The notes under the pieces: generated by a model
Databases searched by the model: none
What the model was told of the DNA's origin: nothing
What the model saw: the letters and a program-made list of their open reading frames with translations, nothing else
NCBI GenBank assembly: GCA_050015375.1
Contig: JBEKBN010000003.1
Coordinates: 16,127-80,126, forward strand
Reading direction: 5' to 3'
DNA length: 64,000 bases
Source: Minisyncoccia bacterium
GTDB taxonomy: Bacteria; Patescibacteriota; Minisyncoccia; 2-02-FULL-40-12; IGHO2-01-FULL-4-A
Shown here: one piece after another, positions 4,047 to 64,000 of the stretch
Layout of the letters: each line of letters opens with the position of its first letter
Position numbering within the stretch: the stretch's first letter is position 1
Program-made: the position numbers and the translations under genes

Positions 4047-5888
4047 ATGCCCAGATTACAGAAAAATGCCGTCAAGGATGAGGTCAATATTCAAAACCAG
4101 ACCAATGGCAGTTTTGTAGTTCCTGACGAGCCGGAGATTCCCGTTCAAGAAGAGTTTTATCAAATGCCGACAAGGTTCGGCAATGTGCCGGTAGATAAAG
4201 CTCCTCTTGGCTGGGATGAGCAAAGAAGATTTGAGAAAGTTTATCCCAGGGTCTCGCTGCCTTTTCAGCAAATTGAGAGGGTCTCTTTTGGTCATCCGGA
4301 GCTTGAACCAAACAAGCTTTTTTTTGGTGATAATTTACATGTAATGCGAATGTTGCCATCCAAGTCAATTGACCTTATTTATATTGACCCGCCGTTTTTC
4401 TCTGGCCGAAATTACAACATCCTCTATGGCGATAAAAATGAGCTTCGTTCTTTCAGAGATATTTGGGAGGGCGGTATGCCTGGCTATTTGATTTGGCTTA
4501 ATGCTCGGCTGTTCGAGATGAAGCGATTACTTAAAGATACCGGCTCAATTTATGTTCATCTCGATTGGCACGCAAGCCATTATGTGAAAATGGAGATGGA
4601 TAAGATATTCGGATACGATAATTTTAGAAATGAAATAATCTGGCGTTATCGAACTGGCAATATTTCTAAAAAGCAATTCCAAAGAAAGCACGACGCAATA
4701 CTACTTTATTCAAAATCACAAGATTGGAAATATAATATCCAGATGCTCAAGGAATATTATGTTCAAGTATTTGGCCCAGATAAGAAGATAAGTTTCAAGA
4801 GTGCGGGCGAACAAGAAGATAAATATGGAAAGTTTAGGATGAGTCAGGTTGATGATGTATGGGATATTTCGGCCGTCTTTACACTAGGAAAGGAGCACAT
4901 TGGTTATCCGACACAAAAACCAGAAGCACTTTTAGAGCGAATCATTAACGCCTCTTCAGATAAGGGCGATGTTGTTGCTGACTTCTTTTGCGGCGGTGGC
5001 ACTACTGCGGTTGTTGCCCAAAGATTGGGACGAAAATGGATTACTTCAGATATTTCCCGTGTCGCCATAGCCATAACCGCTGACCGATTATCTAACGCCG
5101 TCGTGGAGGGAGACAAGGATGGACAAAGAAAAATACAGCAATCTTTAATTGATGAAATTCCAGATTTTGTTATCGAGCACTGGGGTATATATGAAATTCA
5201 AAAACTGGGCAAAATGAAGCCGTTACAATTCAGAAAGTTTATCATCGAAGCATATAATGGCCGTCCCGATACGACGTCTGACAATATACACGGATATAAA
5301 AATGGCGAACCGCTTTTTGTTGGAGACCCAGAGCCGGATGACCGAATTTCCAAAGAGGAAGTTGTTGCTTTTGCCAAAACAATTCTTACCAAAAAAGGCA
5401 TACATAGAGGCACTATGCTTGGCTGGGCTTTCAGTCCGGATGCCAGAGTTGTAGCCGAAAAATTAGCGGCCAGAGAAGGTATCACTTTGGATTTTGTGAA
5501 GCTCAATTTGATACCCATAGATTCACCGGAATTTAAGAGCCATATCACCGATAAAAACCCGTCTTATGTTGATTTGGTTTCATTCATTTTACCGCCTTTG
5601 ATTAGATTTGGTTTCCATAAAACCGGAGCTTTGAAATACGAGTTTGATGTTTCCGAATCAACCTCGATGAACTCCAATGGCAGGATAATCAATGTCCAGT
5701 GGGATTTTGATTATAGAAACCGATTTAGCTCAACTCATGGCTACTCGTTTTTACGAGGTAAAAAGAATGAGTCTTTATTGAAAACAGAATACACTTTTTC
5801 ATCGGCTGGCAAGAGGAAAATAGCTTGCAGAGTTCAAGATGACTTGGGCGGTGAAGCAACCTTAATAAAAGAAATTGATGTTGAATAA
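4047..5888 (+). CDS. mod: Type III restriction-modification methyltransferase (Mod), beta-class N6A/N4C MTase
   Basis: Motif IV DLIYIDPPF lies N-terminal to motif I FFCGGGTTAV. The large region between the motifs is a probable TRD. The res-like helicase gene follows immediately. Confidence 0.8.
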   Translation: MPRLQKNAVKDEVNIQNQTNGSFVVPDEPEIPVQEEFYQMPTRFGNVPVDKAPLGWDEQRRFEKVYPRVSLPFQQIERVSFGHPELEPNKLFFGDNLHVMRMLPSKSIDLIYIDPPFFSGRNYNILYGDKNELRSFRDIWEGGMPGYLIWLNARLFEMKRLLKDTGSIYVHLDWHASHYVKMEMDKIFGYDNFRNEIIWRYRTGNISKKQFQRKHDAILLYSKSQDWKYNIQMLKEYYVQVFGPDKKISFKSAGEQEDKYGKFRMSQVDDVWDISAVFTLGKEHIGYPTQKPEALLERIINASSDKGDVVADFFCGGGTTAVVAQRLGRKWITSDISRVAIAITADRLSNAVVEGDKDGQRKIQQSLIDEIPDFVIEHWGIYEIQKLGKMKPLQFRKFIIEAYNGRPDTTSDNIHGYKNGEPLFVGDPEPDDRISKEEVVAFAKTILTKKGIHRGTMLGWAFSPDARVVAEKLAAREGITLDFVKLNLIPIDSPEFKSHITDKNPSYVDLVSFILPPLIRFGFHKTGALKYEFDVSESTSMNSNGRIINVQWDFDYRNRFSSTHGYSFLRGKKNESLLKTEYTFSSAGKRKIACRVQDDLGGEATLIKEIDVE

Positions 5889-17904: not shown

Positions 17905-18530
17905 ATACAATCTTAACATCTTTGGTTTTTCTAGCATCTTTCGTTTTAGTCGAAGCAATTCAGCGAAAAACCAAATTAGAAAACGAATATTCCAGAAAAA
18001 TAGTTCATATAACCTCTGCGATTATCGTTTTTTTAATGCCTTATTATTTGAATCGCCTCGACATTATCGGGTTATCATTATTTTTCATCATTTTTTTATT
18101 AGTAACCAAGAAGTTAGGTTTTTTACAAAGCATTCACAGAGTCGGGCGGCACAGTCTGGGAGAAATATATTTTCCGCTTGGAGTTGGTTTAACAGCTTTT
18201 TTCTTTCTGCCGAATAACATTATTTCATTTCAGTTCGGCTTTTTAATTCTGGGGTTTTCAGATGCCATCGGGGGTCTAGTAGGATACTCACTCGGTAATC
18301 GTAAAACAATATTGCTTGGAAACAAAAGCATTGAGGGAACTGCCACCTTTTTCCTGACAACATTTCTGATATTTATATTTTTCATTTACTCAAAAACGAG
18401 CACAAATCTAATCTCTGCCTTTCCTGTTGTCTTGTTGATCACCCTTACAGAACTTATATTTACTGGCGGTTTAGATAATCTCTTCTTGCCAATTTTATCA
18501 GCAGTCCTTATTAAAGTGCTATTGAGTTGA
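17901..18530 (+). CDS. CTP_transf_1 (CdsA/CarS/dolichol-phytol kinase) superfamily membrane protein
   Basis: GYSLGNRKTILLGNKSIEGTATFF resembles the KxSxEGTxA motif of polyprenol/phytol kinases. About 6 TM helices. 4-nt overlap with the upstream gene. Confidence 0.4.
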   Translation: MNTILTSLVFLASFVLVEAIQRKTKLENEYSRKIVHITSAIIVFLMPYYLNRLDIIGLSLFFIIFLLVTKKLGFLQSIHRVGRHSLGEIYFPLGVGLTAFFFLPNNIISFQFGFLILGFSDAIGGLVGYSLGNRKTILLGNKSIEGTATFFLTTFLIFIFFIYSKTSTNLISAFPVVLLITLTELIFTGGLDNLFLPILSAVLIKVLLS

Positions 18531-20009
18531 TCGGGTAACTATGAACTTTTTCAAATATATCTTCCTGTCCTTTATAAATATCTCATCTTTCAGGCAAGAC
18601 AGCAGCTCTCTCTTCTCCTCTCGCGATCCTTCCTTGAGGATATACTTAGCATAGTTTTTTATATTCACTTCATTGATATTCGCTTCATTCTGATACTTCT
18701 GTCCAAGGACATTACCTATAAATTGCCGGTGTCGTGCCAGTTCTCTTTCAAGCTTCTCTTTCGCTCCGATCTTATCTATCGAAATTTCATCAATTAATTC
18801 CAGGAGCTGGCCGACCAGCTCCTCTTCACGTATGTATTTCTGTCCGCAATATTTGTCGTGGTATTTAGTACAGTGATAATAAATATATTTGGTTATACCT
18901 CCGTTAGCCAGCTTTTTATACTTCTCCGTTGCCGTGATGCCTGATCCGCAAGCTCCGCATTTGAATATTCTTACAAAATTAAATTCTTTTGTTCCCGGTC
19001 TTAACTTCGGAGTGGCTACTATTGCTGTCTGAACCTTGTTGAACAGATCCTGATCTATAATTGGCTCATGGGAACCGTTATAGAATATTCCGCTTCCTTC
19101 AGGATATTCGAACTTACCATAATAATAGTGGCGCTTAAGAGTGCAGTAAATCATACTGAGGGTTATTCTCTTTCCGGTTCGTGTCCTAAAGCTTGTTTCA
19201 TTATTAAGCCAGGCAAGTAAATCCCGTCCGCTGTATCCCTGATATGCGACCTTTTCGAACATCTGTTTTATAAACGGCGCTCTTATCGGGTCCAAAATAA
19301 CTATTTTCTGTCCCTTTTTTGCTGTTGTATCGTGTATATAGCCCAATGGAGGAACTCCCGGCCGCCAGCCCATTTCGCATTTGGTTCGCAATCCGCGTTT
19401 CACATTCTCGCCTTTGTGGTCGTTCTCCAGTTTCGCTTGTGAACACAAGATCATAAGAAGGAACTTCTCGTTCGGTGAATTAGTGAATCGCTGACCATGC
19501 GTCCGAATTTCTTTCAGGACCCCAGCATCCATAAGGTCAACAACTTTACCCAGATCTCCGGCATTTCTTGATATACGGCTCGGATCCCAGGCAATGATGC
19601 CATCGAACTTTCCGTTTCCGATATCTTTTAATAATTCATTGAAGACCGGCCGTAAGCCAGAATCCTTTGCTGAATGGCTTTCCTGTTTAATCTCAGAGAC
19701 GGTCAAACCATCCCGATTTGCCATCTGGATCATCTCCTTTATCTGAGACTCAATAGAGAGCGCCTGACGCTCGTCCTGCTCGCTTGATTTGCGGGCATAG
19801 AGGCAATACCTCAAAGACCCCTTCAAAGTCTTGCGAAAGATGGTTAGAGACCTGCTTGGGGAGCTTACAAAACAAAACAACCCAGTTGGGTTGTTTTGTT
19901 TTGTAAGATTCCGTCGGGGAGAAAGCCGACTTCTCGGCTTTCGTTCGGACTCGAAGGGCGCAAACGATATTTTTTCAGCAGAAAAAATCGTGCGCCCGTG
20001 GTCAGACAA
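18519..20009 (-). CDS. large serine recombinase (true start probably near 19821, not 20009)
   Basis: Catalytic LRYCLYARKSSEQDERQ, resolvase core, and a large C-terminal recombinase domain with a Zn-ribbon-like CGACGSG...CTKYHDKYC. The ORF-track start is a TTG at 20009, and the ORF reads through a 44-bp palindrome. A TTG giving MKGSLRYCLY lies just downstream of the palindrome. Confidence 0.85.
   Translation of the reverse strand: MSDHGRTIFSAEKISFAPFESERKPRSRLSPRRNLTKQNNPTGLFCFVSSPSRSLTIFRKTLKGSLRYCLYARKSSEQDERQALSIESQIKEMIQMANRDGLTVSEIKQESHSAKDSGLRPVFNELLKDIGNGKFDGIIAWDPSRISRNAGDLGKVVDLMDAGVLKEIRTHGQRFTNSPNEKFLLMILCSQAKLENDHKGENVKRGLRTKCEMGWRPGVPPLGYIHDTTAKKGQKIVILDPIRAPFIKQMFEKVAYQGYSGRDLLAWLNNETSFRTRTGKRITLSMIYCTLKRHYYYGKFEYPEGSGIFYNGSHEPIIDQDLFNKVQTAIVATPKLRPGTKEFNFVRIFKCGACGSGITATEKYKKLANGGITKYIYYHCTKYHDKYCGQKYIREEELVGQLLELIDEISIDKIGAKEKLERELARHRQFIGNVLGQKYQNEANINEVNIKNYAKYILKEGSREEKRELLSCLKDEIFIKDRKIYLKKFIVTRSTQ
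19864..19907. repeat. 44-bp element: perfect 21-bp inverted repeats flanking a central non-palindromic GT (candidate serine-recombinase crossover/att or res site)
   Basis: cttacaaaacaaaacaaccca GT tgggttgttttgttttgtaag. Located immediately 5' of the recombinase catalytic domain coding region. Confidence 0.6.
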
Positions 20010-20035
20010 AACCAGCTGACCGAGCGGGTTTTAGC

Positions 20036-20060
20036 CGCGACCGAGTCCTACCCGTGGAGC
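20036..20060. repeat. 25-bp direct repeat, copy 1 (gcgaccgagtcctacccgtggagc)
   Basis: Recurs at 21085-21109 with one mismatch (T/C). Confidence 0.7.
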
Positions 20061-55011: not shown

Positions 55012-55656
55012 ATGTCTTACGATTTTTATAAATCCGAAGATTATAGACAAAGACAAAGTATATTAACAAAACTAAATTGGCAGAAAGGAGTTTTTGATCA
55101 TCGGATAAGGAATGAAAAGAGAATTTGTAAACGAAGGGGATGCCATAAAGTATTCTATGCCAAACCTAGCAATCCCAAAGTTTTTTGTTCCATATCCTGC
55201 GCTGCAATATACAATAATACAGGGCGGATTCGACGCAGAATAACTTATTGCTTAAATTGCAACAAAAAAACTCCACGCTCTGGCTATAAATATTGTAGTA
55301 ATGCGTGCCAAATCGGTTTTCAATACAAAACATACATTCAAAAATGGAAAGAAGGCAAAAAGAATGGATTAAACGAAAGTATCGGAGTCGTAAATAAGTA
55401 TGTTAAAAGATATTTAAGAGAAAAATATAAAAATGAATGTTGTTTGTGTGGTTGGTCACAAATAAATCCAAGAACAAATACAATTCCCTTATCAGCTGAT
55501 CATATAGATGGAAATTGGCGGAATAATCGAGAAGAAAATTTAAGATTACTTTGTCCAAATTGTGATTCTTTAACTCCAACCTATAAGAACCTAAATAAAG
55601 GTAGAGGAAGGAATATTAGATTGCTTGGACTAAAGAAAGTGAGTAAGTTAGTATAA
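55012..55656 (+). CDS. HNH endonuclease (free-standing, inserted within tRNA cluster)
   Basis: CCLCGW...ADHIDGNWRNNREENLRLLCPNCD HNH/Zn motif, plus N-terminal CxxC pairs. Starts 2 nt after the tRNA-Thr end. Confidence 0.75.
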   Translation: MSYDFYKSEDYRQRQSILTKLNWQKGVFDHRIRNEKRICKRRGCHKVFYAKPSNPKVFCSISCAAIYNNTGRIRRRITYCLNCNKKTPRSGYKYCSNACQIGFQYKTYIQKWKEGKKNGLNESIGVVNKYVKRYLREKYKNECCLCGWSQINPRTNTIPLSADHIDGNWRNNREENLRLLCPNCDSLTPTYKNLNKGRGRNIRLLGLKKVSKLV

Positions 55657-55862: not shown

Positions 55863-55903
55863 CAGTAATTATTTGCAATTATAAATTTTCGATGATCATT
55901 TAT

Positions 55904-55933
55904 TTGAAAATTGAAAATTGAAAATTGAAAATT
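55904..55933. repeat. 4.3 x 7-nt tandem repeat TTGAAAA
   Basis: ttgaaaattgaaaattgaaaattgaaaatt, upstream of rpmG. Confidence 0.8.
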
Positions 55934-55939
55934 ATATTC

Positions 55940-56113: not shown

Positions 56114-56149
56114 GGGGGCGTCGTTCAGTGGCAGGACGCTGGTCTCCAA
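56114..56149 (+). pseudogene. orphan 5' half of a canonical-type tRNA-Trp (acceptor, D-arm, anticodon stem, loop up to CTCCAA)
   Basis: gggggcgtcgttcagtggcaggacgctggtctccaa resembles typical bacterial tRNA-Trp 5' halves but has no complementary 3' half downstream. It shares only ggtctccaa with the intact tRNA-Trp 18 bp away. Confidence 0.6.
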
Positions 56150-56167
56150 TCCCATCACATTCAAAAT

Positions 56168-56238
56168 GGGGATGTCGGTTAACGGCAAACCAACGGTCTC
56201 CAAAACCGTGACTGTAGGTTCGATTCCTACCATCCCCG
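56168..56238 (+). tRNA. tRNA-Trp (CCA)
   Basis: Acceptor GGGGATG/CATCCCC, D GGTT/AACC, anticodon stem ACGGT/ACCGT with loop CTCCAAA, T-arm GTAGG-TTCGATT-CCTAC. Confidence 0.85.
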
Positions 56239-56256
56239 CGTTAAGAATGTGAGGGA

Positions 56257-56361
56257 CGATTCCTTGCGCCCCCGCAAAATCAAAAACAGCCCTGCGGCTG
56301 TTTTTGATTTGAGGAGCAAGGAATCGAACGTCGGAGCGATATTTCGTTAGAAGACGAAATC
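56257..56361 (+). other. nested long hairpins downstream of tRNA-Trp (possible terminator / element-end structure)
   Basis: Outer cgattccttgc/gcaaggaatcg and inner aaaatcaaaaacagcc-ctgc-ggctgtttttgatttg. A second hairpin cgatatttcg...cgaaatcg. Confidence 0.4.
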
Positions 56362-56490
56362 GCGAGATGGTGCCCAGACCGAGGCGAGAGACGGCAAGCC
56401 GAGAGTCGAGGGAGATTTCATTGCGCACCCCTTAAAACGATTAAATTAAAAAACCTCTTTAATGAGGCTTTTTAATTATAACAGTTTAAA

Positions 56491-56685
56491 TTATTTATTA
56501 ATGTTCACACTCACTTCGATTCTCTTCATGAGGTTTTCAACATCCTCAACTTTATAAAGCCGGTAGTTATTCACAGGGTTGCGGAATGCAACAAGCCGCC
56601 CTTTTTTGTCCCAATTGCGGACTGTCAAGGGCGTAACACCGAAAATTTTTGCGACTTCATTAACGGACAAATATCTCTTTGGCAT
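56491..56685 (-). CDS. excisionase/MerR-like helix-turn-helix DNA-binding protein
   Basis: YLSVNEVAKIFGVTPLTVRNWDKKGRLVAFRNPVNNYRLYKVEDV HTH_17-like. Confidence 0.55.
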   Translation of the reverse strand: MPKRYLSVNEVAKIFGVTPLTVRNWDKKGRLVAFRNPVNNYRLYKVEDVENLMKRIEVSVNINK

Positions 56686-57189
56686 GTTACAGGGTCATCA
56701 TAAATTATTAAAAACACCTAAATTTTGATGTAATGAACAAAAAAATTCGTTAATTTATGATAAATGTTTATCAAAAAAGTATTATCAATGTTTATTAATG
56801 TATACATATGATAGTATAACTTTCTTTTATTTTAAAGGCGAGGGGATAACTTTTTGATTTCCGGGAACATCCTAACATTATTTGAAGTAAAAAGATTTAC
56901 CAGGTATTAGAATCCCATTATAGAAGAAGAAAGTTATCAACAAATTTTAAAAACGATGCTCTATAATTAGTACATGATTTTATTATCGGATATCGCATCG
57001 GATTACGCATCCGATATATGAGAATAAATCAATGAATCCCAAGTTATTTATAAACATCCGATAACGCACAGCGACCCCGATAATATCGGGGTCGCCTGGA
57101 ACGCGCGTTTATGACTTTAGTGAGTCATAAACTATAACAATTTTACTAAAAATAAGTACCCGTGTAAACACTAAAAAAGAAGACGTCTG

Positions 57190-60100
57190 ATGCCAAAATA
57201 TTTCGAAGAAAAAAAATACATTTCTCTTCAAGAGGCCTCAAAACTTTGTTCGTATTCTCCGGAGTACCTTCGTCTTTTAGCGCGACAGAAAAAGATCATT
57301 TCAAAACGCATCGGTAGAAATTGGTACACAACCGAGGAAGCGGTTCAAAAATATGTCGCCAAACAAAGTTTGACGATTGTCATTCCGAAAAGTGTATTTA
57401 CCGGAACAAATGGGGAGGAAGAACAGAGTGCCGAAATCAAATTAACTTCGAATGGATCAGAGACCGGCCAAGAGGTGATAAAGTTGGTTTCTGAAGCTGA
57501 TCTTAAGGACACGATTGAAAAAGCAAAATATGAAGAAGAAATAAAAGAAAAAAAGACGGAAAGTATTCTGGAAAATATACACGCGGATCTTGCGAACATT
57601 TCAGAATATAATTTGAGTAGCAGACAAGAGTTAAATGAAATAAAAAGCGGAGTGAAACTTCAAGAAAAAGTAGCCGGTGATCTTGGAAGCATTTCCATGA
57701 GTCTGGAAAAACTCTCCGAACTTCAAAACCAACAGCTGTCGCATATCCAGAGAATGGAGATAGAACAGATCCATTCCCAAAAGGATAAAGAAATACCGGA
57801 GCAGATCGCTATTTCACTCGCGGCACTATCGGAAAATCTAAAACAGCTTTCTTCGATTCACGACCTGCAATTAAAACAGGTTGAAATGCAAAAAGAAATG
57901 ACGGATTCGAAAATGGCTGAAATGCCGAAGCTTATTGATGTTGAGAAAATTCAAAAATCAATCGACGGAACCAATGAAAGAACCGAAAAAATACTTGAAA
58001 AAATTAATCAGGGGTTATCGGGATTAATGGAAAAAAATAACGCTGAAAGGCCGGTTCAAATCATTGAGCATGAAACCGCGCCGAAAGTTATCAATGTTCA
58101 TTACGATACAAAATCGCAGGATGAAATAAAGGAATCGCTCGATAAAATAACCGAAAACCTGAAGCAGCTGTCGCTGATTCAGAATGTTCAATTAAAACAG
58201 ATTCAATTGCAACAGCAGTCGTTTGATAAAGCGATCATTCAAAATCTTGAATTAAAACAGGAGCAACTGCAAAGTCAAAACGCTCAGCCGGCAGTTCAAC
58301 CTGTTGCTTCAATGTTGCCACAAGTATTTAATCCCGAATTCATTTCTGAAAGAACTGACAGGATTCTCGAAAAAATCTACACTTCGGTGGACAGATTGGT
58401 TCAGGCGCAGGAAACGCAATTGCTTGAAAAAACAATTAGACCCGAACCCCAGATAATTCAAGTTCAAGTTCCCACTCCTTCGACTCCGGCTTACAGATTT
58501 CAGACGCCGATCTACGAATCAACTCCGCCAGTCGTCGCGCTTCCTCCGAAGCTTGAAGAATTTCTCGATGTCCAGGCCGGTAGCATTGATTACAAATTAA
58601 AAAAACTCGACAAGGAAGGTAAAAAAATATTCAGCGACCGGAAAAAAAGCATGGCTTTGGTTTTTTCTGTGGTCATTGTTATTTTTCTTCTCGTCGGCGG
58701 ATTCAGTTTTGGAAATTTCAACGGCATCGGCATGGCCATCAAAGGGGTTTTCAAGAACGCCGACACCATTCAGGGGCATTTTGCTGGCACTCATCCCAAC
58801 GAAGTTCTACTTCTTGACGCTAACGGTAACATCGCCATCGCCGGCCATGTCGAGACCACGGCCGTCCAGTTAGATTCCACCGACGGTTCAGCGCCGATCA
58901 TCGTTGACCAGAATTTTTTGAAGAATCTGAAAGGCGGAACGATAAACATCAATGGCGTGGATTCAGGCAAATTCACTCTGGCTTTTGTTACGGCTAACGG
59001 CAATGTAACTTATCAAGATGTGAAATTGGAGGGAAATATTGAGGTCGGAAAAACTCTGATGGTCAAAGGCGCGACCCAATTATTAGCTTCTCTGACAATT
59101 GCTAAGGGTGATCTGAATATCGCCAGCGGCAATTTGAATCTCGGCACCGGCACCATCACCACCAACAACAAAACGATGGTGAAAAACTTGAATGCCGAAT
59201 ATTTGCAGGGCAAGACGCCGGCGGATTTTGTTACTGGTGTGGCGAATACCGTGGCAAACACCGTTGCCGGCAGTCAAACCCTTGATTCCGTTGTCACTAA
59301 CGGCAATTCAACAAGCCACACCGCGTTTTTCAATGGCGGGCTATACGGCGGCGCCGGCAGTTTTGCAACCTTGGGCGTCGGCGGCGATGTCGGGTTGGGC
59401 AAGCAATCTGACCCGAGCAGTGTCACAATGACATCCTATTTCAAGAACTTTACTCTTGATTCGAGCGGTAATAGTTCATTTACTGGCAATGTCGGTGTTG
59501 GAGGAAACCTAAATATCTCCGGCACAACGACAACACAAAACTTGGATGTTAACGGCACAGCGGACATTAATATTGCATCTGTTTCGGCGTATTTTGGAAA
59601 TGGAATGCCGACATCCGATTGCAGTAGTGTTGGTCAGGCGTTATTGTGGAACAAAATTACCGGAAAATTTTCTTGCGGTATCGCCGGTACTGGTTCGGGT
59701 GGCGGCTGGGTAACCGTAAAATCAGGCAATACTGAAGTTTTAGCGTCATCATCAATCCTAAATTTTAATAGCGGCAAATTCACCGCAACGGCGAGCGGAG
59801 ATAGTGAAACATTACTAAACCTTAATTGGGGAAATGGAGGACCGGCATCGCGTTCGCAAGAAAATACCTGGACCGCCCTCAATACTTTTAGCAATATCAG
59901 CATGGGCACTGTGGTCAGCGGGTCTTGGCACGGAACAGCCATTGGCGCTCAATATGGCGGCACCGGATTATCCGCTATTACTAATAATCAGCTTTTGATC
60001 GGAGGCCCGGGCGATACAATTGTTCAAGTTGCCACATCTTCTTTGGGCTTGATTGGCGATAACGATTTTACCGCCAACGGTCTTATGGCCAGAACATCAG

Positions 60101-63100
60101 CCGGCGCATATACTTCGAGAACCATAACGGGAACAGACAATCAAATAGCAGTCGCGAATGGCAACGGCGTTTCTGGCAATCCGACGATAAGTTTACCGAG
60201 TGTTGTTTATTTGGGCTCATCTGGCAAGCTTGGCCGGGACGCTAATAATCTTTTGGACTTTTCAACCGACGGTCAGATAACTTTTCGCGCCAACTCCACC
60301 AATGAAATGGTTATGAATGGGACTGGCCTGTCGGTCAGCGGCACATTGGCTGCCGGCGCCACTACGCTTTCCGGCAATTTGGCGATGGGCGGTTATAAAA
60401 TAACTGGGCTGGCGATGCCCTCCGCTTCTCAAGAGGCAGCCACAAAAGGATATGTGGACGCGGTGGCGCAAGGCCTCCAGCCAAAAGACGCCGTCCGAGC
60501 GGCCACGATTGAAAATATTACTTTGAGCGGCGAACAAACGGTTGACACGGTAAGTTTAGTTGCCGGCGACAGAGTTCTGGTAAAAACCCAAAACGACGCG
60601 GCAACCGATGGCATTTATGTGGTTTCTGCCGGCGCCTGGTCTCGTTCCGCCGATGCCGATACGAGCGCGAAAGTAACTTCCGGCATGTACACATTCGTGG
60701 TTGAAGGAGACAAAGACATAGGAAACGGTTATGTATTGTTAACTCCCAATCCGATAGATCTTGGCGTCACCCCTCTTACATTCACTCAATTTTCTGGTGC
60801 GGGGCAGATCATCGCCGGCAACGGTCTCCTAAAATCCGATTCAAACACCATTGATGTCGTCGGCACAGCCAATAGGATCATTGCTTATCCCGATTCCATT
60901 GATATCGCGCCCACGTATGTTGGCCAAAGCTCAATTGCCACTGTCGGAACCCTTAACTCCGGTTCTATTATCCCGGGTTTCGGAGCCATCAATATCGGAA
61001 CCGAACCGCTGACTGCCGGTGTTGGCTCGTTCAGTTCGATCACCGCCTCCAGCACCTTAACGGTTAACAGCACAGCTACATTCAACGGAAATGTCGGTGT
61101 TTCCGGAACTTTGTCGGCGGCCACGGTTGCGCTTTCCGGTAATTTGGCAATGGGCAATCATTACATCACCGGCTTGGCCAGCCCTCTTAGTGCGCAGGAT
61201 GCCGCCACCAAAGGATATGTTGACGCGCTGGCCCAAGGCCTGACAGTTAAAGACGCCGTCCGGGTGGCGACGACCGGAGATATCACTTTGAGCGGTGAAC
61301 AAACAATTGATGGCGTAGCTGCGGTCGCCGGAGACAGAATTTTGGTGAAAAACGAAACAGATAAAAAAACCAATGGCATTTATGTGGTTAGCGCCGGCGC
61401 CTGGTCTCGTTCCGCCGATGCCGATACAAGCGCGAAAGTAACTTCCGGCATGTACACTTTTGTGACCGATGGAACAACCCAAGCCAACACCGGCTGGAGC
61501 TTGATCACTCCCAATCCCATTGCTTTGAATACAACCCCTCTTGATTTCACCCAATTTTCCGGCGCCGCCGAAATAATAGCCGGCAACGGCTTGGTCAAGA
61601 CAGGCAACACCATCAATGTCGTCGGTACCGCTGATAGGATCATCGCCAATGCCGATTCCATTGATATCGCGCCCACATATGTCGGCCAGAGTTCAATTAA
61701 TACCGTTGGTATTCTTAACACCGGTTCCATCACCTCCGGCTTCGGTTCGATCAACATTGGAACTAAACCTCTGACCGCCGGTATTGGCTCATTCAGTTCG
61801 GTTTTAAGTTCGGGTTCAGGTGTTTTTGATAGCCAGTTGACTGCCGCCTATTTTACGGCCACATCAACAACCGCCAGTTCCACTTTTCCGTACCTTGAAG
61901 TCAGCGGACGGTCCAAGCTGGGGACGGTAACCGGCGGAACCTGGAACGGTTCCATTGTCGGCGTTCCTTACGGCGGCACCGGCGTGTCGAGTTTTACCAC
62001 AAGAGGAATACTTTACGGAAATGGTACCGGTAACATCGCGGTAACTACGGCTGGAACCAACGGCGAGGTGCTTATGGCCGGCATCGGCGGCTTGCCTTCC
62101 TTTGTTGCCACTGCTTCTCTCGGACTTTTGGGCTCATCAATCACCAGTTCTCTGACCAGCAATTACATTCCCAAATGGACCGGTTCCGCTTTTGGCAACT
62201 CCCTGATTTACGACAATGGAACAAACGTCGGCATCGGCACCATTTCCCCCGATTCAGTCCTTGAAATCGCCTCCAATTCTGCCAAGTTCATCATCCGGTC
62301 AACCGGTTCAAACAACTCCACTCTTACTTTTGAACCCTCCAACCTCGGCTCGGCGAGTACCAATGACGGGATGTTCAGTGTCGTGGCAAGTGGTGGAGCG
62401 GGAAAAGACGATTTAATTATCAAAAACGCCACTAATACCAATCTTGTTACCGTTGCCTCCACCGGTTTTGTTGGCATCGGCAGTCCCTCCTCAACATTCG
62501 CCAAATTGGATGTTGCCGGCACGATCAGAGGCCAGAACTTCATGACTTCCGGCGGTTCTCCGGTTAACGATATCCTTCTTCCCCAAGATGTCCAGAATTA
62601 TTCCATCAACTCCCTCAAGGGCACAACCGGCCTTGATATGGCTGATATTCATCAAAAAGTCGCGGCTACTGATTTTACCGGCAACCATGAATCATACAAT
62701 GAATCCGCTACCGCCTTGGCCAATGGCAATGTCCTGATCGCTTACGAGGATGGCGGCAATTCCTGGCGCGGCACTTTTGTGATCTACGATTCAGCCGGAA
62801 ACCAGATCAAATCACCGACCGTGTTTTCCGGAACTCATGGAGTAACCCCCAAATCCGCCATCACCCTCACCAATGGCAATATCCTGATCGCTTACGAAGA
62901 TGGCGACAATTCAAACTATGGCACTTTTGTGATTTACGATTCAGCCGGCAATCTTGTCAAAGCCCCGACAGTGTTCTCCGGAAATCATGATACAGAATTT
63001 AGTTCCGCTGTCACCTTAACCAATGGCAATGTCCTAATTGTCTATGGGGATGCCGACAATTCAGTTTACGGTACTTTTGTGATCTATGATTCTGCCGGAA

Positions 63101-64000
63101 ACCGAGTCAAAGCCCCGACTGTATTTTCCGGAACCCATTCAATAAACTTTGACTCCGCTACCGCCTTGGCCAACGGCAATGCCATGATTACTTATCAAGA
63201 TATCCCCAATTCAACTCGCGGCACTTTTGTCATCTACGATTCAGCCGGCAATCAGATCAAAGCCCCGACCGTATTTTCCGGAAGTGATAGTGCGTATTTC
63301 GAATCTGCCACCACCTTGATCAATGGCAACATTCTGATCGCTTATCAAGATACCAGCAATTCAAATTATGGCACTTTTGTGATCTACGATTCAGCCGGTA
63401 ACCAGATCAAATCACCGACCGTATTTTCCGGAACTCATGAAGCTGACGCCAACTCCGCCGTCGCCTTAACTAACGGCAATGTCTTGATCGCTTATGAAGA
63501 TGCCGGCAATTCATATTATGGCACATTTGTAATTTATGATTCAGCCGGAAATCTTGTCAAAGCACCAACCGTGTTTGCCAGCGCGAATACATTTTGGGAC
63601 AAGTTATTCACCACCACCCTGACTAATGGCGATATTGCCATGGGTTATGGCACATACGCCGCCGGCGTGTCAAAAGAAAAATTCGTCATCTACGAAGGCA
63701 CCGGTTCATATTTTGCCCGCAACGTCGGCATCGGCACCACCACTCCCGCCACCCGTCTCCAAGTCGAAGGCACCGCCTCCGCCTCCTACCTCTTAACGGG
63801 TAATACCCTCCAAGTAGGCGGTTATTCCTCTGCCGCCTTTAATCGGTTTGGCACCGCTACCATAGCTCATTCCAACTATATGTCCTCTAACAACGATGTC
63901 ATGATAGGCGGCGACCTATATACCGTAGGTACCGTGTCTGCCAATATCGTCTCCGCCTCTGCCTTCTTTGGTCTGGGTCTACCCACAAGTGATTGCACCG
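57190..64000 (+). CDS. giant membrane-anchored surface protein (partial, >2270 aa, continues beyond window)
   Basis: A single frame with no stop from ATG 57190 to the window end. N-terminal excisionase/MerR-like HTH, about 450 aa of coiled coil, one TM helix (VFSVVIVIFLLVGGFSFGNF, near 58650-58720), then Gly/Thr/Asn-rich beta-helix-like sequence, two ~255-aa tail-fibre-like modules, and six to seven 50-aa tandem repeats. Confidence 0.8.
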   Translation, partial: MPKYFEEKKYISLQEASKLCSYSPEYLRLLARQKKIISKRIGRNWYTTEEAVQKYVAKQSLTIVIPKSVFTGTNGEEEQSAEIKLTSNGSETGQEVIKLVSEADLKDTIEKAKYEEEIKEKKTESILENIHADLANISEYNLSSRQELNEIKSGVKLQEKVAGDLGSISMSLEKLSELQNQQLSHIQRMEIEQIHSQKDKEIPEQIAISLAALSENLKQLSSIHDLQLKQVEMQKEMTDSKMAEMPKLIDVEKIQKSIDGTNERTEKILEKINQGLSGLMEKNNAERPVQIIEHETAPKVINVHYDTKSQDEIKESLDKITENLKQLSLIQNVQLKQIQLQQQSFDKAIIQNLELKQEQLQSQNAQPAVQPVASMLPQVFNPEFISERTDRILEKIYTSVDRLVQAQETQLLEKTIRPEPQIIQVQVPTPSTPAYRFQTPIYESTPPVVALPPKLEEFLDVQAGSIDYKLKKLDKEGKKIFSDRKKSMALVFSVVIVIFLLVGGFSFGNFNGIGMAIKGVFKNADTIQGHFAGTHPNEVLLLDANGNIAIAGHVETTAVQLDSTDGSAPIIVDQNFLKNLKGGTININGVDSGKFTLAFVTANGNVTYQDVKLEGNIEVGKTLMVKGATQLLASLTIAKGDLNIASGNLNLGTGTITTNNKTMVKNLNAEYLQGKTPADFVTGVANTVANTVAGSQTLDSVVTNGNSTSHTAFFNGGLYGGAGSFATLGVGGDVGLGKQSDPSSVTMTSYFKNFTLDSSGNSSFTGNVGVGGNLNISGTTTTQNLDVNGTADINIASVSAYFGNGMPTSDCSSVGQALLWNKITGKFSCGIAGTGSGGGWVTVKSGNTEVLASSSILNFNSGKFTATASGDSETLLNLNWGNGGPASRSQENTWTALNTFSNISMGTVVSGSWHGTAIGAQYGGTGLSAITNNQLLIGGPGDTIVQVATSSLGLIGDNDFTANGLMARTSAGAYTSRTITGTDNQIAVANGNGVSGNPTISLPSVVYLGSSGKLGRDANNLLDFSTDGQITFRANSTNEMVMNGTGLSVSGTLAAGATTLSGNLAMGGYKITGLAMPSASQEAATKGYVDAVAQGLQPKDAVRAATIENITLSGEQTVDTVSLVAGDRVLVKTQNDAATDGIYVVSAGAWSRSADADTSAKVTSGMYTFVVEGDKDIGNGYVLLTPNPIDLGVTPLTFTQFSGAGQIIAGNGLLKSDSNTIDVVGTANRIIAYPDSIDIAPTYVGQSSIATVGTLNSGSIIPGFGAINIGTEPLTAGVGSFSSITASSTLTVNSTATFNGNVGVSGTLSAATVALSGNLAMGNHYITGLASPLSAQDAATKGYVDALAQGLTVKDAVRVATTGDITLSGEQTIDGVAAVAGDRILVKNETDKKTNGIYVVSAGAWSRSADADTSAKVTSGMYTFVTDGTTQANTGWSLITPNPIALNTTPLDFTQFSGAAEIIAGNGLVKTGNTINVVGTADRIIANADSIDIAPTYVGQSSINTVGILNTGSITSGFGSINIGTKPLTAGIGSFSSVLSSGSGVFDSQLTAAYFTATSTTASSTFPYLEVSGRSKLGTVTGGTWNGSIVGVPYGGTGVSSFTTRGILYGNGTGNIAVTTAGTNGEVLMAGIGGLPSFVATASLGLLGSSITSSLTSNYIPKWTGSAFGNSLIYDNGTNVGIGTISPDSVLEIASNSAKFIIRSTGSNNSTLTFEPSNLGSASTNDGMFSVVASGGAGKDDLIIKNATNTNLVTVASTGFVGIGSPSSTFAKLDVAGTIRGQNFMTSGGSPVNDILLPQDVQNYSINSLKGTTGLDMADIHQKVAATDFTGNHESYNESATALANGNVLIAYEDGGNSWRGTFVIYDSAGNQIKSPTVFSGTHGVTPKSAITLTNGNILIAYEDGDNSNYGTFVIYDSAGNLVKAPTVFSGNHDTEFSSAVTLTNGNVLIVYGDADNSVYGTFVIYDSAGNRVKAPTVFSGTHSINFDSATALANGNAMITYQDIPNSTRGTFVIYDSAGNQIKAPTVFSGSDSAYFESATTLINGNILIAYQDTSNSNYGTFVIYDSAGNQIKSPTVFSGTHEADANSAVALTNGNVLIAYEDAGNSYYGTFVIYDSAGNLVKAPTVFASANTFWDKLFTTTLTNGDIAMGYGTYAAGVSKEKFVIYEGTGSYFARNVGIGTTTPATRLQVEGTASASYLLTGNTLQVGGYSSAAFNRFGTATIAHSNYMSSNNDVMIGGDLYTVGTVSANIVSASAFFGLGLPTSDCT
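60415..61840 (+). repeat. tandem duplication of a ~770-bp module inside the giant gene
   Basis: The two modules share KGYVDA.AQGL..KDAVR.AT...ITLSGEQT.D.V..VAGDR.LVK...D..T.GIYVVSAGAWSRSADADTSAKVTSGMYTFV. They contain a near-identical ~67-nt DNA stretch at 60627-60694 and 61393-61460. Confidence 0.8.
62704..63750 (+). repeat. 6 exact-period 150-bp (50-aa) tandem repeats plus a degenerate 7th, inside the giant gene
   Basis: Units SATALANGNVLIAYEDGGNSWRGTFVIYDSAGNQIKSPTVFSGTHGVTPK at 62704, 62854, 63004, 63154, 63304 and 63454. Confidence 0.85.

Follow-up and report, generated by a model that had tools for sequence, protein, structure and literature searches.

Why would a bacterial chromosome keep half of a tRNA-Trp gene directly in front of a complete one, and where is the other half? 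The question is raised by a 64,000-nt stretch of contig JBEKBN010000003.1 (hereafter the window, in whose numbering positions are given), from a member of the Patescibacteria (candidate phyla radiation, CPR; Paceibacteria/'Minisyncoccia'). Here the ribosomal protein gene rpmG is followed by a 5′ piece of tRNA-Trp and then by an intact tRNA-Trp gene. An earlier note on this DNA took the piece for one edge of a large element integrated in the anticodon loop, with the displaced 3′ half lying somewhere beyond the window. Our analysis confirms and extends its first observation, while its interpretation is only partly supported: all that explains the relic lies within 160 nt. The locus is probably the scar of an in-place replacement of tRNA-Trp, in which a working gene is nested inside a broken older one.

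Two tRNA-Trp genes, one inside the other

The locus is anchored by rpmG (ribosomal protein L33; 55925-56104, + strand; Pfam PF00471, E=8e-13), whose nearest relatives at the protein level are found in Yanofskybacteria-like metagenome-assembled genomes (85%, 78% and 74% identity). Nine nucleotides after its stop codon begins the 5′ relic of what we call the outer tRNA-Trp (56114-56149, + strand, 36 nt); relatives likewise keep tRNA-Trp after rpmG, at a distance of 12-17 nt. The relic reads GGGGGCG TC GTTC AGTGGCA GGAC G CTGGT CTCCAA, comprising an acceptor strand, an intact D arm, the 5′ strand of the anticodon stem and CTCCAA, and it covers tRNA positions 1-37, ending after the CCA-A of the anticodon loop. 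In the related loci used for comparison (about 160 in all, designated by L-numbers), it matches the 5′ halves of the intact tRNA-Trp genes of L091 and L042 at 32 of 36 positions, and the adjacent inner tRNA at only 24 of 36. It occurs a single time in the 64-kb window and is thus not a dispersed repeat. Its identification as the 5′ part of a tRNA-Trp gene behind rpmG is borne out.

The same holds for the complete gene 18 nt further on. This inner tRNA-Trp(CCA) (56168-56238, + strand) is called by ARAGORN and reaches 63.3 bits with the Rfam tRNA model (gathering score 29), and it has a cloverleaf, a CCA anticodon, the acceptor stem GGGGATG/CATCCCC and the discriminator G73. It is 84-86% identical to the tRNA-Trp of L090 and L013 and is a working tRNA-Trp. 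The distinction drawn earlier between a 'canonical' fragment and a 'divergent' intact gene does not hold, as both types are ordinary in related Patescibacteria. In L089, L090, L106 and L113 the resident tRNA-Trp immediately behind rpmG is of the inner type (D arm GGTTAAYGGCAAACC), which also occurs in L013, further downstream of rpmG; the outer type is normal in L006, L010, L042, L060, L091 and others. A faster evolution of tRNA-Trp in general was considered and set aside, as its mean pairwise identity (0.71) differs only mildly from that of the neighbouring tRNAs (0.76-0.83).

The missing half lies 6 nt behind the inner gene. This 3′ relic (56245-56274, + strand) reads GAATG TGAGG GACGATT CCTTG CGCCCCC G, i.e. 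a variable loop, a T arm, an acceptor strand and a discriminator G, and stands in exact register with the 3′ end of the inner tRNA (direct repeat D6). Its acceptor strand CGCCCCC is complementary to GGGGGCG of the 5′ relic at 7/7 positions. With the six bases AACCAG placed between them, the relics form a 73-nt sequence that ARAGORN calls as tRNA-Trp(cca), complete with a 7-bp acceptor stem, D arm, anticodon arm and 5-nt variable loop; joined directly, without added bases, they yield no tRNA call. The T loop of the 3′ relic is GACGATT, not TTCGATT, its T stem requires two G-U pairs, and the whole T arm has the look of a decaying pseudogene. Since both halves come from one gene and give no cloverleaf as they stand, the outer gene is a tRNA pseudogene, and its pieces (positions 1-37 and 44-73) are dead. 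A split or spliced outer tRNA was ruled out, the 3′ strand of the anticodon stem being absent.

Behind the 3′ relic follows the native tRNA-Trp terminator (56276-56310, + strand; inverted repeat I8, 100% complementary), a 15-bp stem with the loop CTGC and a T run. Nearly the same hairpin stands directly after the intact tRNA-Trp of L156, and a similar one is found in L149. It is this terminator context, together with the acceptor strand, that assigns the 3′ relic to the outer gene. The displaced half that had been expected beyond the window is thus found inside it, between the intact tRNA and the native terminator.

This position is one of the difficulties for a large integrative element, which would have entered by crossover in GGTCTCCAA and brought tRNA-Trp and an excisionase, and whose distal boundary, together with the 3′ half, an integrase and secE/nusG, would be situated outside the window. 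The model accounts for a 5′ relic followed by an intact tRNA, and some 250 nt downstream there is indeed a small helix-turn-helix (HTH) gene of the excisionase fold (56491-56685, − strand; 64 aa), with PHROG excisionase/transposase-HTH hits of E 5e-9 to 1e-7. The protein passes the Pfam cut-offs for MerR (39.1 bits) and HTH_17 (35 bits), but it remains below the cut-off of the excisionase family TIGR01764 (21.7 bits against 28.8), and its best NCBIfam match, BldC-like, is below cut-off too. Likewise, the 9-mer GGTCTCCAA is shared by fragment and intact gene as had been observed, but it is anticodon stem-loop sequence present in 71 of 104 distinct tRNA-Trp genes, and it is shared because of common tRNA identity rather than as a crossover or attachment (att) core.

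The neighbourhood of the HTH gene points in the same direction. It ends in a terminator-like hairpin (56444-56477, − strand; terminator scan) and is accompanied by a giant open reading frame (ORF) with an N-terminal HTH_17 domain (57190-64000, + strand; >2270 aa), which runs off the window without a stop codon. In more than 20 related loci the HTH protein is 77-85% identical and always divergent from an adjoining giant ORF, whose N-terminus is 34-65% identical in L042, L133, L060, L091, L003 and others and always lies beside the HTH gene. In L042 and L060, one intact outer-type tRNA-Trp is followed by terminator, HTH gene (−) and giant ORF (+), which is the arrangement of the window without the insert; in L091, L003 and L005 the pair is found 0.6-4 kb further downstream. 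Genes 3′ of tRNA-Trp in relatives are either this pair or other genes. As synteny with tRNA-Trp extends to more than 20 relatives, some of which possess just one, intact tRNA-Trp, neither the HTH gene nor the giant ORF is element cargo; both are ordinary, conserved chromosomal neighbours. Nor is the expected integrase present in 56686-64000, which consists only of intergenic DNA and the giant ORF, with no room left in 57190-64000, and the serine recombinases of the window are all at least 36 kb upstream of the nested tRNA. A look-up beyond the window by the HTH protein returned only same-species contigs of 2.7 kb and 1 kb. No secE/nusG was located; the ORFs at 9.1-11.3 kb look unrelated by eye, although no family search was made. 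Altogether, a large element seems hardly credible. What survives of the earlier proposal is that the resident gene was broken in its anticodon loop and that the insert brought a replacement tRNA-Trp, not that a mobile element extends to the right.

The insert and its possible origin

Between the two relics lie about 96 nt of foreign DNA, composed of TCCCATCACATTC-AAAAT, the inner tRNA and CGTTAA, in place of outer positions 38-43. The left junction (56150-56167, + strand; inverted repeat I7) consists of the arm TCCCATCACATTC (56150-56162) and AAAAT, and the right junction, as read from the sequence, is CGTTAA (56239-56244, + strand). A 12/13-bp inverted repeat brackets the insert: with one bulge, TCCCATCACATTC is the reverse complement of the 12 nt with which the right-hand relic begins, GAATGTGAGGGA. 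The stretch 56245-56256 serves twice, as the start of the 3′ relic and as the right arm of the repeat. The nested arrangement is identical in L001 and L002, which are other samples of the same species. A group I intron was rejected as an explanation: at 96 nt the insert is too short, Intron_gpI is not hit at E<=10, and the exons lack positions 38-43.

Which of the two genes is the older resident can be read from a third structure behind the terminator, a module of a tRNA-trailing RNA that we call R1 (56313-56431, described below). One stem of this module matches the outer 3′ end at 13 of 14 positions (I13) and does not match the inner tRNA, and therefore the outer gene was the long-term resident. 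The present tRNA-Trp of L096 likewise mismatches the tRNA copy held in its trailing RNA, and tRNA-Trp has therefore been replaced more than once.

On the replacement reading, an outer-type tRNA-Trp would originally have stood directly after rpmG, followed by its terminator and by an R1 RNA with a stem matched to it. The gene would then have broken in the anticodon loop or stem with loss of positions 38-43, and the gap would have been filled by about 96 nt carrying a complete tRNA-Trp of the type that related Patescibacteria keep at the same locus. We infer that both strands broke in the anticodon region, between positions 37 and 44, and that the repair captured a tRNA-Trp-bearing fragment from a relative. 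A snap-back or template switch might have produced an inverted copy of 12-13 nt from the right-hand end, giving the bracketing repeat and the resulting order of inverted copy, captured DNA and original sequence. Only cells that regained a working tRNA-Trp would have survived such an event, and the most likely source of breaks would be the homing-endonuclease genes in the tRNA cluster.

Candidates for such genes are found in the window and in its relatives. The local gene order is S2, EF-Ts, a TPR protein, tRNA-Thr(tgt), an inserted ORF, tRNA-Tyr, tRNA-Thr(ggt), rpmG and tRNA-Trp. With the exception of the inserted ORF, relatives have the same arrangement, including the conserved succession tRNA-Thr, tRNA-Tyr, tRNA-Thr, rpmG, tRNA-Trp. 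The inserted ORF (55012-55656, + strand), between tRNA-Thr(tgt) and tRNA-Tyr and 0.46 kb upstream, is a free-standing HNH endonuclease ORF of phage type (phrog_1271, E=7e-21; Pfam HNH_3 weak) with a homologue only in the same-species L001 among the related loci; in L163 the same intergenic slot is occupied by a LAGLIDADG_3 ORF. At least seven loci (L005, L084-L087, L094 and L096) carry an ORF of about 217-225 aa between rpmG and tRNA-Trp (e.g. L005 5229-5879, L086 331-987, L094 6226-6903). Pfam sees only an N-terminal HTH_23 in it and recognises no catalytic domain; it is possibly a free-standing homing endonuclease, perhaps of the LAGLIDADG kind. A sequence search of the PDB gave no match for the HNH ORF or the L005-type ORF. 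The tRNA cluster thus looks, from the ORFs it contains, like a landing site for homing-endonuclease genes, and we hypothesise that endonucleases cause the tRNA-Trp break.

Further relics support a recurrent process. In three other genomes a 5′ relic of tRNA-Trp lies just upstream of an intact tRNA-Trp. The relic of L004 (489-552) covers positions 1-40 and contains a palindrome of 20 nt, placed between C32 and T33, and the diverged relic of L054 (~5300-5360, − strand) covers positions 1-43. That of L063 (1961-2006, − strand; positions 1-41) is identical to the intact copy at 36/36 positions and has a 24-nt palindrome and a TCCA duplication, and a GIY-YIG ORF (Pfam E=1e-15) lies between relic and gene, with its stop codon inside the tRNA. 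The palindromes of L004 and L063 are GC-rich fillers in the anticodon loop. All four relics, including that of the window, retain the 5′ part and end at positions 37-43, which points to recurrent breakage at the anticodon arm and not to random decay.

Two side observations concern the surroundings of rpmG. Immediately 5′ of the gene, a tandem GAAAATT repeat of about five units (55899-55935) overlaps promoter-like hexamers. Between rpmG and tRNA-Trp, several relatives have long imperfect hairpins of 130-210 nt (L013 5160-5340, L009 5175-5350, L012 3345-3475, L097 640-850).

The duplicate in L063, 36 nt with 100% identity upstream of tRNA-Trp, would also suit a different history, in which outer and inner genes were tandem tRNA-Trp paralogues, the upstream copy lost its 3′ half, and 56257-56274 derived from a former R1 module. 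Direct copies in R1 begin at C56, as does the tRNA-like sequence at 56257, and tandem R1 modules are known in L065, L025, L014 and L052. However, the order at the locus is nested (outer 5′, inner, outer 3′) rather than tandem, the inner gene is immediately succeeded by an outer-type 3′ copy and the native terminator, no more than 6 added nt are needed to turn the relics back into a tRNA, and over 56150-56275 the R1 covariance model gives no more than a partial match of 3 bits. We consider decay of a tandem pair unlikely.

Several points nevertheless weigh against the replacement scar. The six restored bases AACCAG are our own addition, and by identity alone the 3′ relic is as close to the inner tRNA (23/31) as to the outer-type genes of L091, L060 and L078 (23-24/31). 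The stretch 56247-56275 also resembles the 3′ end of the R1 subfamily found in the window (GT(C)GAGGGA, then a direct copy that starts at C56), and what we call the 3′ relic may accordingly be the end of a former first R1 module, of which only 56257-56274 (positions 56-73) is tRNA-derived, and the repeat arms would then be the remains of its P3 stem. Scans of genomes and metagenomes brought up neither a pre-insertion allele nor a donor sharing the flanks of the insert, and by L33 the nearest relative in them is only 85% identical; no endonuclease has been demonstrated to cut tRNA-Trp genes. Finally, strong leader/trailer helices also surround tRNA-Thr(tgt) in several relatives, and the inverted repeat could be a selected processing stem instead of a repair scar.

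The leader/trailer duplex of the inner tRNA, at -18.0 kcal/mol, is the 6th strongest of 302 tRNA flank pairs, with only 0.7% of mismatched controls reaching -16 kcal/mol, and the minimum-energy fold includes this helix. Together with the outer pieces, the helix might be kept as a functional composite precursor, a scaffold from which the inner tRNA is freed out of the rpmG co-transcript, for instance at a site for a double-strand RNase. In line with this, the region folds far better than shuffled sequences (z = -5.5) with the helix enclosing the tRNA, the tRNA-Thr(tgt) helices of L037, L090, L003 and L149 are strong and conserved, and the arrangement is identical in three samples. But the three samples are near-identical overall and hence carry no information on constraint. 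Leader/trailer pairing is not general, with real and control duplex energies nearly overlapping, relatives have inner-type tRNA without such a helix, and the outer T loop is degenerate. A functional precursor is therefore a very improbable reading in our view. As an observation in its own right, the GC-rich helices flanking tRNA-Thr(tgt) reach -21 to -29 kcal/mol (L037 446-518, L090 4641-4713, L003 3092-3164, L149 3195-3267), and their changes between genomes look compensatory (GCACCTTAC/GTAAGGTGC versus GCACCTTTC/GAAAGGTGC).

The inverted repeat might alternatively mark the ends of a small mobile tRNA cassette (56150-56256, with terminal inverted repeats of 12-13 bp), or the tRNA might be cargo in the P3-like stem of an R1-type element. 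Besides the 12/13-bp repeat around the tRNA, this agrees with the resemblance of the arms to the P3 strands of the R1 subfamily of the window's module and with the movement of R1 cores between tRNA loci, where their ends are re-matched to the neighbour. Yet the repeat arm has no further copy in 64 kb, there is no target-site duplication and no transposase, and a tRNA flanked by these arms occurs at no other locus of the roughly 160; mobility of this kind appears quite unlikely. A reading of the arms as a miniature inverted-repeat transposable element was also discarded, since 64 kb contain only the two arms, a number below the chance expectation at 2 mismatches.

R1, a tRNA-trailing RNA

The R1 module of the window (56313-56431, + strand), a full representative of its family, forms a three-way junction with the stems P1, P2 and P3 and scores 90.4 bits (E~1e-21) with the R1 covariance model. 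The 5′ strand of its P1, GGAGCAAGGAATCG, is the complement of positions 56-69 of the outer relic, and in the 3′ strand, GATTTCATTGCGCACCCC, the outer 3′ end recurs in degenerate form. Modules of this family are roughly 100-130 nt long and combine a hairpin, the T-loop and T-stem sequence in reverse complement, a core rich in G and C, and the tRNA's own sequence repeated directly from C56 onwards to the 3′ end. Over 820 nt the window differs from L001 and L002 by only three G-to-A changes (56330, 56334 and 56338, within 9 nt), and all three sites lie in the conserved CGGAGCG part of the module.

The fold is well supported by comparison. In an alignment of 11 sequences, 97% of the cells are paired, against 30-45% with slid partners, and none of 500 shuffles was as good; the covariance model, with 44 strong members in the related loci, gives 92% paired cells (slid controls up to 55%). 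Compensatory changes affect 8 of 20 pairs with 11 sequences and 14 of 20 with 44. The plus strand gives the better fold, and its choice is confirmed by conserved G-U pairs. Where a tRNA lies upstream on the same strand, R1 usually follows 11-105 nt behind tRNA-Trp, Tyr, Leu(caa) or Thr(ggt), and both strands of its stem are matched to the tRNA just upstream. Tandem units or second modules occur further out, and several hits have no upstream tRNA in the locus. Five tandem units with a period of 149 nt are present in L052 (4052-4742), and other copies include L065 5720-5840, L096 2078-2198, L006 4537-4661 and about 40 more.

The cores do not cluster by tRNA: Leu copies of L052 are 85-90% identical to Trp copies of L025, L082 and L073, and the Trp and Tyr copies of L068 are mutual best matches. 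The cores therefore move, and their ends are matched afresh. The tRNA gene lacks a CCA with which the direct copy is prolonged in 7 of about 19 cases. Together with the closing stem, this non-encoded CCA suggests either copying from mature tRNA, as in a retroviral primer-binding site, or a selected mimic of the tRNA 3′ end. Rfam searches (the window region at E<=10, the whole window at gathering scores and seven related loci) returned only tRNAs or chance-level hits and no match for R1, and no description of an R1-like motif or of a nested tRNA was found in the literature. R1 is probably a new RNA family supported by covariation. More tentatively, and on balance rather doubtfully, it might be a tRNA-templated element acting on the tRNA loci of these Patescibacteria, and the nested tRNA-Trp, lying between inverted and direct copies of the outer gene, would be a product of the same templating.

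Further R1-like sequences were noted along the way. A weaker hit of 32 bits in the window (19940-20060, +) has a tRNA-like 3′ end and no tRNA upstream. It is situated in the upstream region of a large serine recombinase gene (18519-19826, −) with a YARKSS... catalytic motif, and a hairpin (19862-19909) lies between the two. A second serine recombinase, 46% identical to the first, is partial at the window start (2-775, −). Tandem R1 modules scoring 55.9 bits are present in L164 (2900-3319; IMGVR_UViG_3300033463_005745, classed as viral), with no tRNA in the stretch examined. In several relatives a conserved GC-rich motif, CCTTCGC..CCGAAGCG..ACGGCGG..CCCGC, stands directly 3′ of tRNA-Trp or of the R1 direct copy (L004 626-700, L006 5259-5330, L010 632-700, L026 5495-5540); it may be another small structured RNA.

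Implications and known systems

For annotation, the locus teaches that a tRNA fragment and a small gene of the excisionase fold are insufficient to call an integrated element in CPR genomes, where HTH genes of this kind belong to the conserved chromosomal neighbourhood. It records the turnover of an essential single-copy tRNA gene by a whole replacement gene inserted into the old one, and with 5′ relics in four lineages, endonuclease-driven tRNA replacement becomes testable. R1 may matter more than the scar: if it is a tRNA-templated element or a tRNA-end mimic, the most reduced of bacterial genomes would contain an RNA of a new kind.

Attachment sites in tRNA genes fall into sublocation classes. 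Like the fragments left at such sites, the relic described here is a partial copy that adjoins an intact tRNA with the same identity, and the break falls within a tRNA loop. However, 5′ and 3′ relics here flank a 96-nt insert that is essentially one tRNA, there is neither integrase nor cargo, and the adjoining genes are chromosomal and conserved. In classical integration only the 3′ part is duplicated, and it comes to lie at the opposite end of an element measured in kilobases. tRNA gene fragments at integration sites are reviewed in bioRxiv 10.1101/2022.07.05.498093.

A second comparison is offered by group I introns, which in Patescibacteria tRNAs are reported to occupy nearly all positions of the anticodon loop except 37/38 (PMC13011429; a text search of this paper shows no mention of tRNA-Trp). 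The phylum is the same, the anticodon loop is interrupted and the function of the host tRNA must survive. In contrast to these introns, the insert consists of a 71-nt tRNA and 24 nt, contains no ribozyme and has no Rfam intron hit, and with six exon bases missing the outer gene is not restorable by splicing. A driver for such events could resemble that of phage T4, where the homing endonuclease SegB drives the inheritance of tRNA gene regions (PMC2330249). Free-standing HNH, GIY-YIG and LAGLIDADG ORFs likewise occur in the tRNA cluster, and tRNA alleles are mosaic among close relatives, although the link between endonuclease and tRNA-Trp break is, unlike in the SegB case, our inference.

For R1, the closest parallel that we can name is found in the distal repeats of E. 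coli tyrT and their rtT RNA, where every unit behind the tRNA gene closes with the 3′-end sequence of the tRNA. R1 shares this 3′-end copy per unit and the potential for tandem amplification (five units in L052). It differs in its unrelated sequence (no match to RF00391), in the conserved core of a three-way junction, in the additional inverted complement of the T arm, and in that it follows four tRNA species across many genomes, its ends fitted to each of them. The nested tRNA-Trp scar, for its part, is an unusual variant of the known phenomena of tRNA gene disruption and fragmentation.

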